64,000 nucleotides of DNA from Escherichia phage 121Q. The translations under genes were made by a program, and so were the position numbers. The stretch is taken from the sequence record NC_025447.1. One strand, given 5' to 3'. The notes under the pieces were generated by a model. It worked only from the letters and a program-made list of their open reading frames with translations. It did no database searches and was not told the origin of the DNA. Shown in pieces: positions 890 to 20,175 of the stretch. Every line of letters begins with the position of its first letter. Within the stretch, counting starts at the first letter, position 1.

Positions 890-2032
890 TTATTTCCACG
901 GTAGAAGGGAATCGGGGACTCTGGTTGGAACTCTCACGGCTGGAACATTTCCAAGTTCAGCCAAACCACTCATATACAAATTGTTATTTTCATCAATTAT
1001 CATTGAATAGAAATTATCAATTACGAAGCCTGAAATTCGTCTTCCTTCTAATGCATCAAGAACCATTTCGGTGAAAGTTAATATATTTTCGGATGTTTGA
1101 TTAACACCACATGCACCATAGGTATTTCGACCACAAGTATATAACTTATTATTATTTTTAACAACACATCCATTCCCTTCGTTGTTGGATAAACCACCCA
1201 CCAACTCTATTTCACCTTGGAATGATAAATTGGGAATTAATGTACTCATTGGTACTGCTGATACTCTACCTACACCAGCTTGACCATATGCATTTGGTGA
1301 AGCAACCTTCACTGAACCATCATTAAGAAATATATATGAAGTACGGTATGTATTTACAGCTTGTATAGCATTGGTGATCGTATTGTCTTTTGTAAAACTT
1401 AATATATTTGATGTTGTTGTACTACCAGGAGCAACAGTATTTCCTGCATACCAATAGGAACCATCATCAAGAACTAACCCAGTACTGAGCAAAGAACAGC
1501 CATAACTTTTAACATTTTCTATAGTGCTGTATCTGAACGATGTGACATTAGCTGTTGACGCGTTACCAAATACACCACCCTCGCCAGCACCACAGTAGAA
1601 CCATTTTCCATTTTTCAAAAATACACGCAAATTCTGTCCAACAGCAATACCATCAATATCATCAGCACTGACACCAAAATCAGTGAAGTACTGGGTTACA
1701 TCAATCCAAACCCCATTTGTATTTGTTCCGATTTGTGGCATTACTATACTAGCACCTGTGAACCAAATAGTTCCATCATTCTTAATGGCAATGGAACCAA
1801 GAACACCACCCCAGTAACGTTCAATATTATTATTCACACGGGTCCATACGGTGGATGATTGTAATGAACCATTACCACCTTGTCCAAATGAAGATGAACC
1901 ATACCAGTACAAGTCACCATTAACATGCAAATAAAAACGAGTATTATAATTTGCTTGTAATCTATTTTTAAATAGAGGTTTTGGTTCTGGTGCTTCATTT
2001 CCGTACTTAACCATTCTTGCAAAAGGTAACAT
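890..2032 (-). CDS. RCC1-like repeat (beta-propeller) protein, paralog B; possible virion fibre or host-interaction protein
   Basis: 380-aa ORF; N-terminus MLPFARMVKYGN; Gly/Asn/Ser/Thr-rich blades such as YxxGxNxxGQxG; SD upstream. Confidence 0.75.
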   Translation of the reverse strand: MLPFARMVKYGNEAPEPKPLFKNRLQANYNTRFYLHVNGDLYWYGSSSFGQGGNGSLQSSTVWTRVNNNIERYWGGVLGSIAIKNDGTIWFTGASIVMPQIGTNTNGVWIDVTQYFTDFGVSADDIDGIAVGQNLRVFLKNGKWFYCGAGEGGVFGNASTANVTSFRYSTIENVKSYGCSLLSTGLVLDDGSYWYAGNTVAPGSTTTSNILSFTKDNTITNAIQAVNTYRTSYIFLNDGSVKVASPNAYGQAGVGRVSAVPMSTLIPNLSFQGEIELVGGLSNNEGNGCVVKNNNKLYTCGRNTYGACGVNQTSENILTFTEMVLDALEGRRISGFVIDNFYSMIIDENNNLYMSGLAELGNVPAVRVPTRVPDSLLPWK

Positions 2033-2106
2033 AATTCCCTCCTTTATTCATTATACTATATTTAATACAAAAAAGAAAAGCCAGTATCAAGTACTGGCAT
2101 ATCAAA
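2033..2106. repeat. 74-bp intergenic repeat, copy 2
   Basis: Identical to 816-889. Confidence 0.85.
2064..2098 (-). terminator. Rho-independent terminator (minus strand) after gene 2107-3255
   Basis: Same hairpin plus U-run as 852-881. Confidence 0.6.
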
Positions 2107-3255
2107 TCACTGCAAAAATGACATATCGACTTCGGTATAATTAAGAACGTTCTGTCCAGCAATACCTCCCATTACTACAATTGAAGCCCCACAATAATAT
2201 AACTTCGAAGTGTCAGTAAGTATAAGTGAACCAGATGGGGTGCGTACCAAATTACACGAAGTATTAAACGAAGTATATGAAGGGGTATAAGAGTACTGAT
2301 TAATATTATTACCAACACCTAATTGACCAGACGAGTTGCTTCCAGATGCATAAAGTACTTCATCACCTTTAACTATATGTGACGCCATGTTACCAACACA
2401 AGTATATAAACTATAAACTCCTGAACTCAATAATGTTGGAGTTTTGTATTGTATATCTGTAGATGAAGAAGTACCACCTGTGCCAAATTCGTTCCCGTAT
2501 TGTGCACCGAACTGTTTACCACAAGCGTACAAATTATTATCCGATTTAATAAAAAATGTACTCTGATAACTGACATTACAATCTATAACATCCGAAGAAA
2601 TCATCGTCACCCCAGTAATAGAAGTTTGATTGCCTGTACCTAACTGATAGTAATAGTTAAAACCACAACCCCATAAAGTATTATCTTCTTTTAGGTATAT
2701 GTTACCAACTGCCTTTTTAACCGAAGTTATAGTATCTACCCTTTTGAATGTGTTAAAAGAATTAATGTTTGTACCATCACCAAATGATGATAGGTTAGAG
2801 TTATTGTTAGCTCCACAACAATACAATGTACCATCGTTTGTTATCAAATTTACCTTCATATCATTAAAACTACTCATGTATTTTATATCAGAAACATTAA
2901 TACCACCTGATGTTATCCATGTAGTACAGTCCGTCCACAAAGTTTTTCTATCAGTTACACCAGTGAATGCCTTCGTGTTGCCAGTGATAAAAACTTTTCC
3001 CGTACCTTTCTCTTCGTACAATTGACAATCACTACTGTTATCTTCCAATAGAACTCGTTTAACATTCTCCGCACAAAGAATAAATTTACTCGATGCTACA
3101 CCTGTTCCAGTACCCCAATTCGTCGCAGAAGATGCATACAACTTATCAGTATAAGTATCATGAAGATACATGGAATCACTGGAATATATTTTAAAACGTC
3201 CATCATCACCAGGGGCAATATTCCCGTACTTAACCATTCTTGCAAAAGGTAACAT
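2107..3255 (-). CDS. RCC1-like repeat (beta-propeller) protein, paralog C
   Basis: ORF track gives 2107-3291; start trimmed to the Met of MLPFARMVKYGN (rc ATG 3253-3255), which has the same SD context as the paralogs; blades such as YASGSNSSGQLGVGN and WGCGFNYYYQLGTGN. Confidence 0.7.
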   Translation of the reverse strand: MLPFARMVKYGNIAPGDDGRFKIYSSDSMYLHDTYTDKLYASSATNWGTGTGVASSKFILCAENVKRVLLEDNSSDCQLYEEKGTGKVFITGNTKAFTGVTDRKTLWTDCTTWITSGGINVSDIKYMSSFNDMKVNLITNDGTLYCCGANNNSNLSSFGDGTNINSFNTFKRVDTITSVKKAVGNIYLKEDNTLWGCGFNYYYQLGTGNQTSITGVTMISSDVIDCNVSYQSTFFIKSDNNLYACGKQFGAQYGNEFGTGGTSSSTDIQYKTPTLLSSGVYSLYTCVGNMASHIVKGDEVLYASGSNSSGQLGVGNNINQYSYTPSYTSFNTSCNLVRTPSGSLILTDTSKLYYCGASIVVMGGIAGQNVLNYTEVDMSFLQ

Positions 3256-3303
3256 AATTCCCTCCTTATTCATTATATCATATTTACCCAATAAAGAAAA
3301 CCC

Positions 3304-17138: not shown

Positions 17139-17477
17139 ATGATCTCTATCGCTCAATCTAACTTTGAAAACGAAATCATCGCTCAGGCACTGCGTTTAAA
17201 TGATGGTCGGGCCGAAATCAATTACGGTTTCAATAGTGGTGGATGTGAAAAATATCAGTACTTTGTAACGGCTGATGGCTGTGTCCTGGGTATCAATACA
17301 GTTATTGTAAACATTCAGAAAATTAATTTCAATGATCCAGACGATAGCCAGTTTTACATCACGGGCGTAGACGTGAACTATGAGGATGACTCACTAACTG
17401 ATGATCACACTGGCGAGAAGTTAGAAAGTGCATACGGTGAAGATGATTATCAGTCAGTACCAGAAGATTTTGAATAA
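17139..17477 (+). CDS. hypothetical acidic protein (112 aa)
   Basis: SD AAAAGGAAT; ATG 17139. Confidence 0.65.
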   Translation: MISIAQSNFENEIIAQALRLNDGRAEINYGFNSGGCEKYQYFVTADGCVLGINTVIVNIQKINFNDPDDSQFYITGVDVNYEDDSLTDDHTGEKLESAYGEDDYQSVPEDFE

Positions 17478-17491
17478 TATTAAAAAATAGT

Positions 17492-17519
17492 TTGACAATA
17501 GTTTTTAGTACTGTATAAT
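17492..17519 (+). promoter_or_regulatory. early-type promoter with leader hairpin
   Basis: TTGACA, 16-nt spacer, TATAAT; hairpin GGGGAGAATAGTTCTCCCC 17532-17550. Confidence 0.65.
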
Positions 17520-17572
17520 TAATTACATCAAGGGGAGAATAGTTCTCCCCACTAACAGAGAGAGAAAACAAA

Positions 17573-17785
17573 ATGGCTAATATCCGCACTGTACTGAAAA
17601 ATGCAAAACAAGTTTTATTTTCTGATCATGAAAATTTCAACAAGGATATCACTGGCGTTCGGAATATCAAAGATGTAAAAAATGTTATGGGTATCTATTG
17701 CAATATGAAACGTGTTGGCACGTTCGGCGATAAAGTACTATACCAGGCAGGGGATTACAATTTTACACTGACTATCATTAACTAA
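17573..17785 (+). CDS. hypothetical protein (70 aa)
   Basis: SD AGAGAGAGAAAA; MANIRTVLKN. Confidence 0.65.
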   Translation: MANIRTVLKNAKQVLFSDHENFNKDITGVRNIKDVKNVMGIYCNMKRVGTFGDKVLYQAGDYNFTLTIIN

Positions 17786-17804: not shown

Positions 17805-17833
17805 TTGACAACGTTTGATAGTACTGGCATAAT
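17805..17833 (+). promoter_or_regulatory. early-type promoter (variant 2)
   Basis: TTGACA, 17-nt spacer, CATAAT. Confidence 0.55.
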
Positions 17834-17876
17834 AACTTTTATCAAGACAACGCATATTAATTTAAGGAATACTAAA

Positions 17877-18056
17877 ATGGCTATTATCGCAAAAACTGAA
17901 ATCATCGGCCTGGATTCTATCATCATGACGTTTGAAGATCAAAAAGGGATGTATGTAGTTTCCTATGGTGATTATGTTCGGGAGTATGAAACAGTAGACG
18001 AAGCCTTTGAAAGTTACATTCGCCAGGTTAATAAAGCATACGACGATTACCGCTAA
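17877..18056 (+). CDS. hypothetical protein (59 aa)
   Basis: Start trimmed from 17805 (which lies in the promoter) to ATG 17877 after SD TAAGGAAT; MAIIAKTEII. Confidence 0.6.
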   Translation: MAIIAKTEIIGLDSIIMTFEDQKGMYVVSYGDYVREYETVDEAFESYIRQVNKAYDDYR

Positions 18057-18606: not shown

Positions 18607-18635
18607 TTGACAATATTATCCAGTACTGGCATAAT
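18607..18635 (+). promoter_or_regulatory. early-type promoter (variant 2) in front of a ~290-nt leader
   Basis: TTGACA, 17-nt spacer, CATAAT; leader holds box element and GATC cluster. Confidence 0.5.
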
Positions 18636-18657
18636 ACTTACATCAAGACGAGAACGT

Positions 18658-18691
18658 CACTAACCCATAGGGTGCACAAATGTAACTATAT
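18658..18691 (+). repeat. 'CCCATAGGGTGCA' box element
   Basis: cactaacccatagggtgcacaaatgtaactatat. Confidence 0.5.
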
Positions 18692-18697
18692 AATATC

Positions 18698-18768
18698 GAT
18701 CAATAAATGATCAAAAAAGTACTGGATCAATTTAGCATAAGGCGTATAATTCTGATCAAATCTTGATC
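18698..18768. repeat. Cluster of five GATCAA repeats (Dam-type GATC sites)
   Basis: cgatcaat, tgatcaaa, ggatcaat, tgatcaaa, tgatcaaa within ~70 bp. Confidence 0.5.
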
Positions 18769-18931
18769 AAAGGCAATAAACGTAGTTGAAATTATATAGA
18801 AAGTACAAAGGCGTTACCATTCGTGGTAATGCTGGGGAATATGTAGTATCATACGGTTTGAATAAAATCAGTACTAGTAGTATTATTGTAGCATTACAGT
18901 ACTATAGTATTTTTATAATGAGGTTAAAATA

Positions 18932-19189
18932 ATGGCTGTTGGATTCGCGAAGGACGGGGCCGAGCAAGACGAGATTAACGCAGTGATTCAGGCCGCTGTA
19001 AACCACGCTAGAACGCAAATTAACGCACAAATAGAATCACTGATACATTGCCTCGACTGCGGCGATAAAATCCCTGAGAATCGCCGCCTGGCCGTTAAGG
19101 GGTGTAAGTACTGCATCACTTGCCAGGCTGATCATGATAGCATATTCAAACGCAATCCCCGTAATTGTTGGCATAGATCTATGAGATAA
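18932..19189 (+). CDS. TraR/DksA-family C4 zinc-finger protein (candidate RNA-polymerase-binding modulator)
   Basis: CLDCGDKIPENRRLAVKGCKYCITCQ matches the C-x2-C-x17-C-x2-C spacing and the CxxCGxxIPExRR...C..CQ pattern of TraR/DksA zinc fingers; SD TGAGGT. Confidence 0.55.
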   Translation: MAVGFAKDGAEQDEINAVIQAAVNHARTQINAQIESLIHCLDCGDKIPENRRLAVKGCKYCITCQADHDSIFKRNPRNCWHRSMR

Positions 19190-19195
19190 AAAGTA

Positions 19196-19223
19196 TTGAC
19201 AGTACTGTTAGTTAGTGTATAAT
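19196..19223 (+). promoter_or_regulatory. early-type promoter
   Basis: TTGACA, 16-nt spacer, TATAAT. Confidence 0.55.
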
Positions 19224-19252: not shown

Positions 19253-19609
19253 ATGGGTATACAACATATCACGCGTACTACAGACAATGGTGAGATCACT
19301 GGCTATCAAGTACAAGGCAAAGTAGCACAATTGCAGTACTGGTTTGTTAAACGTGGCATTGTTGCACCGGATCTTGATTATGATCGTGTAGCGTTTATTG
19401 ATTCTCTTTATGTTGATCCCGATAATCGCGGTAACGGTGAAGGTACTGAGTTAATGAATGCCTTTATTGATGCCGCCGATGATTCAGATTGTATCATCTT
19501 AGAATGCGATACTGGAGAAGATAACGAGTTTAATCTTAAAGAATGGTATGAAGGTTTTGGATTTGAAGTACTGATTAACTGCGAATATCCTATAATGATT
19601 TTATCCTAG
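19253..19609 (+). CDS. possible GNAT-family N-acetyltransferase (118 aa)
   Basis: LYVDPDNRGNGEGTELMNAF resembles GNAT motif A (R-G-x-G-x-G); SD CTGAGGAT. Confidence 0.4.
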   Translation: MGIQHITRTTDNGEITGYQVQGKVAQLQYWFVKRGIVAPDLDYDRVAFIDSLYVDPDNRGNGEGTELMNAFIDAADDSDCIILECDTGEDNEFNLKEWYEGFGFEVLINCEYPIMILS

Positions 19610-19611
19610 TA

Positions 19612-19639
19612 CTTGCAATTAGTTTTAAGTACTGTATAA
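19612..19639 (+). promoter_or_regulatory. early-type promoter with leader hairpin
   Basis: TTGCAA, 16-nt spacer, TATAAT; hairpin 19652-19670. Confidence 0.65.
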
Positions 19640-19688
19640 TAGTTTACATGAAGGGGAGAATAGTTCTCCCCACTACAAGGAAAGACAA

Positions 19689-19877
19689 ATGCAAAACTTA
19701 TCAAGTATTTTAGTACAAGATGATTTCGGTAATCCTGGAAGTGCTATCATCGTTCGGGGCAATAAGGCAACGTTTGTTATTGCTGGTGGACCTGTACAGC
19801 GTAGCATTAAAAACAATGCAGTTACAATCAATAATGTTCGCTATCGCTTAGATAAAGAATTGATTCATAAACTTTAA
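19689..19877 (+). CDS. hypothetical protein (62 aa)
   Basis: SD AAGGAAAGA; ATG 19689. Confidence 0.6.
   Translation: MQNLSSILVQDDFGNPGSAIIVRGNKATFVIAGGPVQRSIKNNAVTINNVRYRLDKELIHKL
19782..19789 (+). other. Chi octamer GCTGGTGG (inside CDS)
   Basis: Exact match, codes IAGG. Confidence 0.55.
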
Positions 19878-19885
19878 AAAAGTAT

Positions 19886-19913
19886 TTGACAAAGCATTGT
19901 AGTACTGTATAAT
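19886..19913 (+). promoter_or_regulatory. early-type promoter with leader hairpin
   Basis: TTGACA, 16-nt spacer, TATAAT; hairpin 19926-19945. Confidence 0.65.
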
Positions 19914-19962
19914 AGTTTACATGAAGGGGAGAAATGATTCTCCCCACTAAGAGGAAAGAAAC

Positions 19963-20175
19963 ATGCAAGGTCAACTAATCGTTCGTAAATGGTCTGATAC
20001 TAACGAAAAACCGTGGGATGTTCAATATATCGGACCGGACGGTGTTTCACGTTATCAACCTGGCGTAACGCATAGTACTGAGCAATATGCCGCCGCTCAC
20101 CGCGAACGCCTGTTAGAATCTATGAAACAGGGATTCTGTGAAAAATTCATTCAAGATCATTGGCTGAAAGATTAA
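19963..20175 (+). CDS. hypothetical protein (70 aa)
   Basis: SD AAGAGGAAAGAA; ATG 19963. Confidence 0.65.
   Translation: MQGQLIVRKWSDTNEKPWDVQYIGPDGVSRYQPGVTHSTEQYAAAHRERLLESMKQGFCEKFIQDHWLKD

Follow-up and report, generated by a model that had tools for sequence, protein, structure and literature searches.

A YbiI-like TraR/DksA-family zinc-finger protein in the terminal-repeat region of Escherichia phage 121Q and its possible action on host RNA polymerase

Among the closest described systems, TraR of the F plasmid has three functional elements: an N-terminal helix with a DxxDxA tip that lies by the active site of RNA polymerase (RNAP), a zinc domain of globular shape, and a helix at the C-terminus that lies on the beta lobe-Si1 (PMC9239242, PMC6970531). 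Its residue R48 contacts the beta' rim helices and R49 contacts beta'Si3 (PMC9239242). The reprogramming of host RNAP by phage-encoded homologues of TraR was published in 2022 with biochemistry on five phage proteins, all five of which bound RNAP and inhibited rRNA and ribosomal-protein promoters, and one of the homologues, lambda Orf73, increased the phage yield (PMC9239242). The DxxDxA tip is critical in TraR and in Orf73, and a C4 zinc finger alone is no guarantee of DksA/TraR-like function (PMC9239242). In case of Escherichia coli YbiI, one relevant remark on its function was found in the literature, namely that the overexpressed protein rescued the amino-acid auxotrophy of a dksA-null strain (data not shown there; PMC2613031); the dksA-null rescue assay also qualified the phage TraR homologues.

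Here we analysed a window of 64,000 nucleotides from Escherichia phage 121Q (sequence record NC_025447.1), in which an 85-residue protein is, on the sequence evidence, a near-certain member of the TraR/DksA family and of its YbiI-like branch. Compared with F TraR (5W1S, 6N57), it has the same three-part architecture with 85 instead of 73 residues and a similar length of the N-terminal helix, and P48/E49 and R51/R52 stand where TraR has P45/E46 and R48/R49. However, it is devoid of DxxDxA, carries an extra N-terminal peptide and an extra C-terminal tail, and comes from a virulent phage, whereas TraR comes from a conjugative plasmid. With lambda Orf73 it shares 48% identity over 46 residues without gaps, and both have an extra cysteine at the position of TraR residue 55. 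Orf73, P2 Orf82, VHML Orf8 and VP882 Orf61/TraR are likewise phage-encoded, are expressed early, and have been proposed to divert RNAP from ribosome synthesis (PMC9239242), which is the role that would be proposed for the window protein too. These four proteins, however, belong to temperate phages and have at residues 3-8 either DxxDxA or a close variant of it, whereas the window protein belongs to a virulent jumbo phage and has a YbiI-type tip, unlike the Orf73 group. The likeness to E. coli YbiI lies in the MAxG[FW]AxD.A start, the CxxC-x17-CxxC pattern, IPxxRR and a basic tail ending in [LM]R, but the identity is only about 41% in the multiple alignment and 35% in the Foldseek alignment. 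Moreover, YbiI is chromosomal and the window protein phage-borne, and the second tip position is E11 in the window protein and V11 in YbiI. DksA shares the C4 zinc-finger domain (PF01258) with the window protein, but the latter is about half as long, has a single helix and is not expected to have the ppGpp-binding residues.

As it stands, the protein is an ordinary case from a family that has been described well, and the role proposed for it follows a model already in print. Its identity is already public, in that the orthologues carry such labels in GenBank records. What gives it a wider interest is the YbiI-like branch, which comprises 128 of the 201 homologues that we collected, has not been characterised in print and does not have the DxxDxA tip needed by the tested proteins; a representative expressed from the early region in the direct terminal repeat (DTR) of a virulent phage would be a convenient entry to the question of whether and how this branch binds RNAP. 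By analogy with Orf73, we lean towards the reading that the protein is an early secondary-channel binder of host RNAP, inhibiting rRNA and ribosomal-protein promoters independently of ppGpp, and we give this reading a probability slightly better than even.

Coding status and family assignment

The coding sequence (18932..19189, plus strand), as taken from the ORF list and the sequence, starts with ATG, includes a TAA stop and specifies the 85-residue product MAVGFAKDGAEQDEINAVIQAAVNHARTQINAQIESLIHCLDCGDKIPENRRLAVKGCKYCITCQADHDSIFKRNPRNCWHRSMR. A Shine-Dalgarno GAGG (18920-18923, plus strand), read from the sequence, is located 8 nt 5' of the ATG. Between this gene and its orthologue in the T4-like phage VR5 there are 49 changes at third, 23 at first and 18 at second codon positions; the codons that differ number 57, of which 29 are synonymous. 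This substitution pattern indicates that the frame is under purifying selection and backs its coding status. In addition, 18 columns are invariant across an alignment of 37 homologues, and homologues with 65-94% identity make up at least 44 protein clusters, which come from two phage groups unrelated to each other. The idea that the ORF is a chance frame or a decaying, functionless pseudogene has its small size in its favour, and some decay of the gene is conceivable considering that JS09 and some other T4-like phages keep only a match to residues 60-85. Against this idea, the ORF is intact and full-length with its Shine-Dalgarno and ATG, homologues of 65-94% identity exist, third-position changes are dominant, and the zinc ligands are all invariant; we regard its probability as negligible and discarded it on the conservation pattern.

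The preliminary description of this DNA had read the protein as a TraR/DksA-family zinc-finger protein from its C-x2-C-x17-C-x2-C spacing, with a profile search and a structure prediction named as checks, and both checks bore this reading out. The spacing is formed by C40, C43, C61 and C64 within the peptide CLDCGDKIPENRRLAVKGCKYCITCQ at residues 40-65. The profile search returned a significant curated match to Pfam PF01258 (zf-dskA_traR) at residues 39-68, with 44 bits against a gathering score of 24.9 (E=2.2e-11), and among PHROGs the protein matched phrog_54, 'DksA-like zinc-finger protein' (E=7e-19). Its best relative of known structure by sequence is E. coli YbiI (2KGO, E=3e-11, residues 1-69), followed by F-plasmid TraR in 5W1S and 6N57 (E about 1e-5). 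The NCBIfam models rank in the same way: the top match is the YbiI equivalog NF008243/PRK11019, which covers residues 1-71 and scores 79.2 bits, below its curated cut-off of 96, and the second is the TraR subfamily of phages and conjugal plasmids, TIGR02419, with 50.1 bits, below the cut-off of 59.7. The protein scores 30.4 with the TraR equivalog (cut-off 108) and 13.7 bits with DksA proper (NF033459), far under the cut-off of 105. Furthermore, a profile-profile comparison (hhalign) of the clade with a TraR/Orf73 profile gave a probability of 99.8%, for residues 18-77 only.

The AlphaFold2 model (mean pLDDT 71) consists of a long N-terminal helix at residues 6-29, a zinc-ribbon globule and a C-terminal helix at residues 62-71, which is the layout of TraR with its single long N-terminal helix of about 26 residues, globular zinc domain and C-terminal helix. 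The modelled N-terminal helix has 24 residues, close to the length of TraR_N (2-27; PMC6970531), and a coiled-coil hairpin of the DksA type is not seen in the model. The best matches of the model in a Foldseek search against the PDB were YbiI, RNAP-bound TraR and, more weakly, DksA (7KHI_M, E=0.08).

Zinc ribbon, N-terminal tip and C-terminal tail

The C4 zinc-ribbon segment (19049..19123, plus strand), delimited by a six-frame regular expression, by the invariant columns and by HMMER and hhalign comparison with TraR, includes the stretch I47-P48-E49-x-R51-R52. The four cysteines C40, C43, C61 and C64 are invariant in 37 of 37 homologues, and the stretch, which equals I44-P45-E46-x-R48-R49 of TraR, is invariant or nearly so in the same set. 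Both HMMER and hhalign align the invariant R51/R52 with R48/R49 of TraR. A fifth cysteine, C58, stands where TraR has V55, and lambda Orf73 has such a cysteine too (PMC9239242). No second C4 motif of the CxxC-x17-CxxC type was found in the six frames of the 64-kb window, which thus holds no paralogue of this kind.

The N-terminus is the part in which the protein departs from TraR. A clade-specific tip, MAVGFAKDGAEQ (codons 1-12; 18932..18967, plus strand), stands where the canonical DxxDxA would be, and D-x-x-D-x-A is absent from residues 1-20 (MAVGFAKDGAEQDEINAV). The consensus N-terminus of the clade is MAxGFAKDGAxQ, and among 37 homologues A2, G4, G9 and Q12 are invariant and M1, K7, D8 and A10 are at least 90% conserved. 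The window protein has both the YbiI-type N-terminus MAxG[FW]A.D.A and the basic tail ending in [LM]R, a description that we derived from the alignments and not from a curated definition. The YbiI-like start MAxG[FWY] accounts for the 128 homologues mentioned above, the window protein being of that type, whereas a TraR/Orf73-like D-x-x-D-x-A within the first 14 residues occurs in only 20 of the 201. The acidic residues D8, E11, D13 and E14 cluster in the first two turns of the helix, and the three methods disagree on their register relative to D3/D6 of TraR: when the gapless BLASTP alignment with lambda Orf73 is extended, D8/E11 fall on D3/D6 of Orf73 and read D8xxE11xD13; MAFFT gives E11xxE14xN16; and in hhalign the alignment with the TraR/Orf73 profile does not take in residues 1-17. 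Judged by the distances from the tip to the first cysteine, D8 may tentatively be equated with the first Asp. Thus, of the elements known from TraR, the zinc domain and the C-terminal helix are present and the DxxDxA tip is missing.

The basic C-terminal tail, SIFKRNPRNCWHRSMR (codons 70-85; 19139..19186, plus strand), is conserved in the alignments and has low pLDDT in the AlphaFold2 model. It ends in RNCWHRSMR, a shortened form of the YNRRGSKDSQLR tail of YbiI and other bacterial YbiI-like proteins, and intermediates between the two occur among the collected homologues. Two separate observations concern this end of the protein. One is that phrog_25948, which covers residues 60-85 alone, and the T4-like phage JS09 (NC_024124.2 113281-113358) match only the C-terminal 26 residues, and such partial matches suggest that some T-even-like genomes keep a truncated remainder of the gene. 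The other is that a database protein of 231 aa, P0194, has tandem repeats like residues 61-82 (ITCHKDHDHFVRTQPVNCW), with four matched stretches.

The tip and the tail bear on a second reading of the function, in which the protein would enter the secondary channel and act there in a manner other than that of TraR: the invariant, non-helical MAVGF and the acidic tip might reach into or plug the active-site or NTP-entry region, or DksA, GreA and GreB might be excluded, so that the protein would be a general inhibitor or a competitor and not an allosteric modulator selective for promoters. The clade tip that replaces DxxDxA is more conserved than the remaining protein, and the extra MAVGF peptide would have no place in the exact pose of TraR because a mere 4.3 A separate S2 of TraR from the catalytic Mg (PMC6970531), which means that the five extra residues need another place. 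Moreover, binders of the channel with other outcomes are known, such as Rnk and the Gre factors (PMC9239242), and the basic tail, which TraR does not have, hints at an extra contact. However, YbiI, with the same tip, reportedly complements dksA auxotrophy, which requires DksA-like positive regulation of amino-acid promoters and more than a blockage (PMC2613031), and a general inhibitor of RNAP made from a sigma70 promoter would silence the early genes of the phage itself if nothing counteracted it. We regard this reading as rather unlikely, while keeping it as a tentative candidate.

Transcription unit and terminal-repeat context

Directly upstream of the zinc-finger gene there is an ORF of 48 aa with a TTG start (18786..18932, plus strand), whose TAA overlaps the ATG of the zinc-finger gene (TAATG), and the two are probably translationally coupled. 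It matches phrog_38664 over the full length (E=9e-34) and is an annotated CDS in phage Turkey3, and its differences from vB_Ec-M-J include five synonymous third-position changes in the alignment as read by eye. Its peptide GEYVVSYG resembles GMYVVSYG of the ORF at 17805-18056, of which it may be a paralogue to judge from this likeness.

The probable coupling can be counted for a third reading, according to which a YbiI-type zinc protein would have its job outside RNAP, being metal-related, nucleic-acid-binding or an adaptor for a phage partner, with its TraR likeness due to a shared ancestry of the fold. In the same direction, TraR of VP882 works in a complex with a partner, QisA (bioRxiv 10.64898/2026.07.27.740977), and some C4 zinc-finger homologues without DxxDxA have no DksA/TraR activity (PMC9239242). 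A conserved QisA-like partner was considered and rejected, given that the upstream ORF of Asteriusvirus (phrog_38664) differs from the MobD.3-like ORF in VR5; this difference between Asteriusvirus and T4-like phages that share the zinc-finger gene speaks against the third reading as well. Furthermore, the RNAP-contacting IPExRR is invariant in phage and bacterial members, which is hard to explain otherwise, and the PADLOC defence models gave no match for the zinc-finger protein, the 48-aa ORF or the downstream acetyltransferase. A role outside RNAP is, in our estimate, quite improbable.

Transcription of the unit most likely starts from a putative promoter at 18607..18635 (plus strand), which reads TTGACA-17-CATAAT with a TG-extended -10 and scored 11/12 in the consensus scan. 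It is the nearest strong promoter-like site on the upstream side and is built like the perfect promoters of the region. Its downstream flank is the same as that of two perfect promoters, and no terminator-like site was found from there to the zinc-finger gene. A weaker alternative of promoter-like appearance, TTGAAT-17-TATTAT (18858..18886, plus strand; 9/12 consensus), lies within the 48-aa ORF and has no other support. The leader from the 18607 site to the zinc-finger ATG is about 290 nt long, and part of it is 100% identical to vB_Ec-M-J, but not all relatives share this identity, which falls to 79% in a second group of them. We considered a structured regulatory RNA in the leader and dropped the idea, for the fold of the leader part of about 150 nt at 18643-18790 gave z = -0.73, no sign of structure; a search of the whole window with Rfam gave no family at the gathering score. 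The leader also contains five GATC sites within 72 bp (18698-18768), all of which are GATCAA. No GATC cluster of the window is denser, the next best having 3 per 100 bp against a background of 2.2 per kb, and in the window as a whole GATC is rarer than expected (141 observed vs 201 expected). The cluster may be a site related to Dam/SeqA, or else several binding sites for a protein in a row.

The next gene downstream (19253..19609, plus strand) encodes a GNAT acetyltransferase of 118 aa (PF00583, 38.5 bits) and has its own perfect promoter at 19196. Its orthologues in the relatives are labelled 'PaiA acetyltransferase' or 'acetyltransferase'. Among phage GNATs, Rac of the phiKMV-like phages inactivates the RNAP of the host (PMC7552054).

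The region is about 89-93% identical in nucleotide sequence to Asteriusvirus jumbo coliphages such as Turkey3, SP27, PBECO4, fEgEco12 and vB_Ec-M-J, a genus from which the window itself comes, and in many relatives the orthologue is labelled 'DksA-like zinc-finger protein', 'TraR/DksA C4-type zinc finger protein' or 'C-4 type zinc finger protein'. EcMJ_029, the orthologue in vB_Ec-M-J, falls within an annotated 21.5-kb DTR, and mapping of the ends of this repeat on the window gives an equivalent segment at about 7458-27640. In fEgEco12 the orthologous region is at 11-13 kb, within a DTR of 20,993 bp that was confirmed by restriction digestion (PMC13070987). The genome papers on Asteriusvirus confirm terminal repeats of about 21 kb and hold nothing on promoters or on the zinc-finger gene.

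The gene had also been described beforehand as lying in an early region with many sigma70 promoters, a setting that would suit a part in redirecting host transcription, and the promoter scan confirmed the many promoters. The window has 14 perfect TTGACA-N16-18-TATAAT sites on the plus strand and none on the minus strand, where the chance expectation estimated from base composition is about 0.1 per strand. As many as 13 of the 14, all on the plus strand, fall in the DTR-equivalent segment 7458-27640; past about 27.6 kb there is only one (49983), and the genes of the relative overlap end to end. Most promoters of the DTR-equivalent segment are preceded by A-rich sequence and followed by an AT-rich discriminator (type A(G/T)TTTACA), nearly all have a spacer of 16 bp, and six perfect promoters are followed by a hairpin in the 5'-proximal transcript, GGGGAGAA...TTCTCCCC. 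The segment thus has the appearance of a series of small genes, each with its own promoter for the host sigma70 polymerase. Such a layout of the DTR recalls the pre-early terminal-repeat genes of T5. The early context is supported by the co-oriented consensus promoters and by the mapping to the relatives' DTR (PMC13070987), and from these we infer the early timing itself.

Two further observations were made on the surroundings. The minus-strand ORFs at 17359-17589, 19606-19704 and 19828-19974 share peptides such as SGENYSPL.VNYYTVLK, and we rejected them as genes since they are reverse translations of the repeated promoter/5'-hairpin elements. Just before the DTR-equivalent segment there are two minus-strand ORFs of 380 and 394 aa at 890-3291; in the relatives, the match of window positions 1-25000 takes in features named 'regulator of chromosome condensation' (RCC1-like), which we presume to be the counterparts of these two ORFs.

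Possible action on host RNA polymerase

If the window protein is, as we lean towards, an early Orf73-like binder of the secondary channel, its gene would be transcribed early by the host sigma70 RNAP from the promoter-dense DTR region. By analogy with F TraR and lambda Orf73, from which we infer the binding to RNAP and the direction of the effect, the protein would enter the secondary channel of E. coli RNAP with its long N-terminal helix, dock its zinc-ribbon globule (R51, R52) on the rim helices of beta' and on Si3, and touch the beta lobe and Si1 with its C-terminal helix. The inhibition, independent of ppGpp, would then fall on promoters whose open complexes are short-lived, such as those for rRNA and ribosomal proteins, and the polymerase would thereby be freed for the phage's own strong promoters with AT-rich discriminators. 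These phage consensus promoters would be expected to be spared because the DksA/TraR-sensitive promoters form short-lived open complexes. What counts against a TraR-like role is that DxxDxA is absent and that the scores with NF008243 and TIGR02419 are both under the cut-offs.

A bolder idea extends to the whole YbiI-like branch, which takes in the 65-75% identical orthologues of T4-like phages and whose members might be mechanistically distinct effectors of the secondary channel, inserting MAxGFAKDGAxQ into the catalytic centre and making with the basic tail a contact that TraR does not have. We hold this idea to be unlikely. If it were true, the outcome would be unlike that of TraR, for example a general shut-off of the host, or a shielding of phage transcription from DksA/ppGpp and Gre; and as virulent phages of two unrelated lineages keep the gene, the branch could represent a widespread, unstudied early take-over factor.

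Concerning the distribution of the family, tblastn found homologues of the zinc-finger protein in 838 phage records, and HMMER, run exhaustively against 1.84 billion cluster representatives, gave 522 matches at E<=1e-3. Close copies with at least 80% identity are present in 32 records, all from the jumbo-phage group, and copies with 65-75% identity are found in T4-like Straboviridae, where that of Dhakavirus VR5 sits between tk and nrdC among small ORFs. The hosts of the phages bearing homologues are, among the matches listed, Enterobacterales, Acinetobacter, Aeromonas and Vibrio, and the polymerases of these proteobacteria carry the Si1 and Si3 insertions needed by TraR (PMC9239242). For the closest phage relatives the hosts are E. 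coli, Salmonella and Shigella, and E. coli RNAP has both Si1 and Si3 (PMC6970531).
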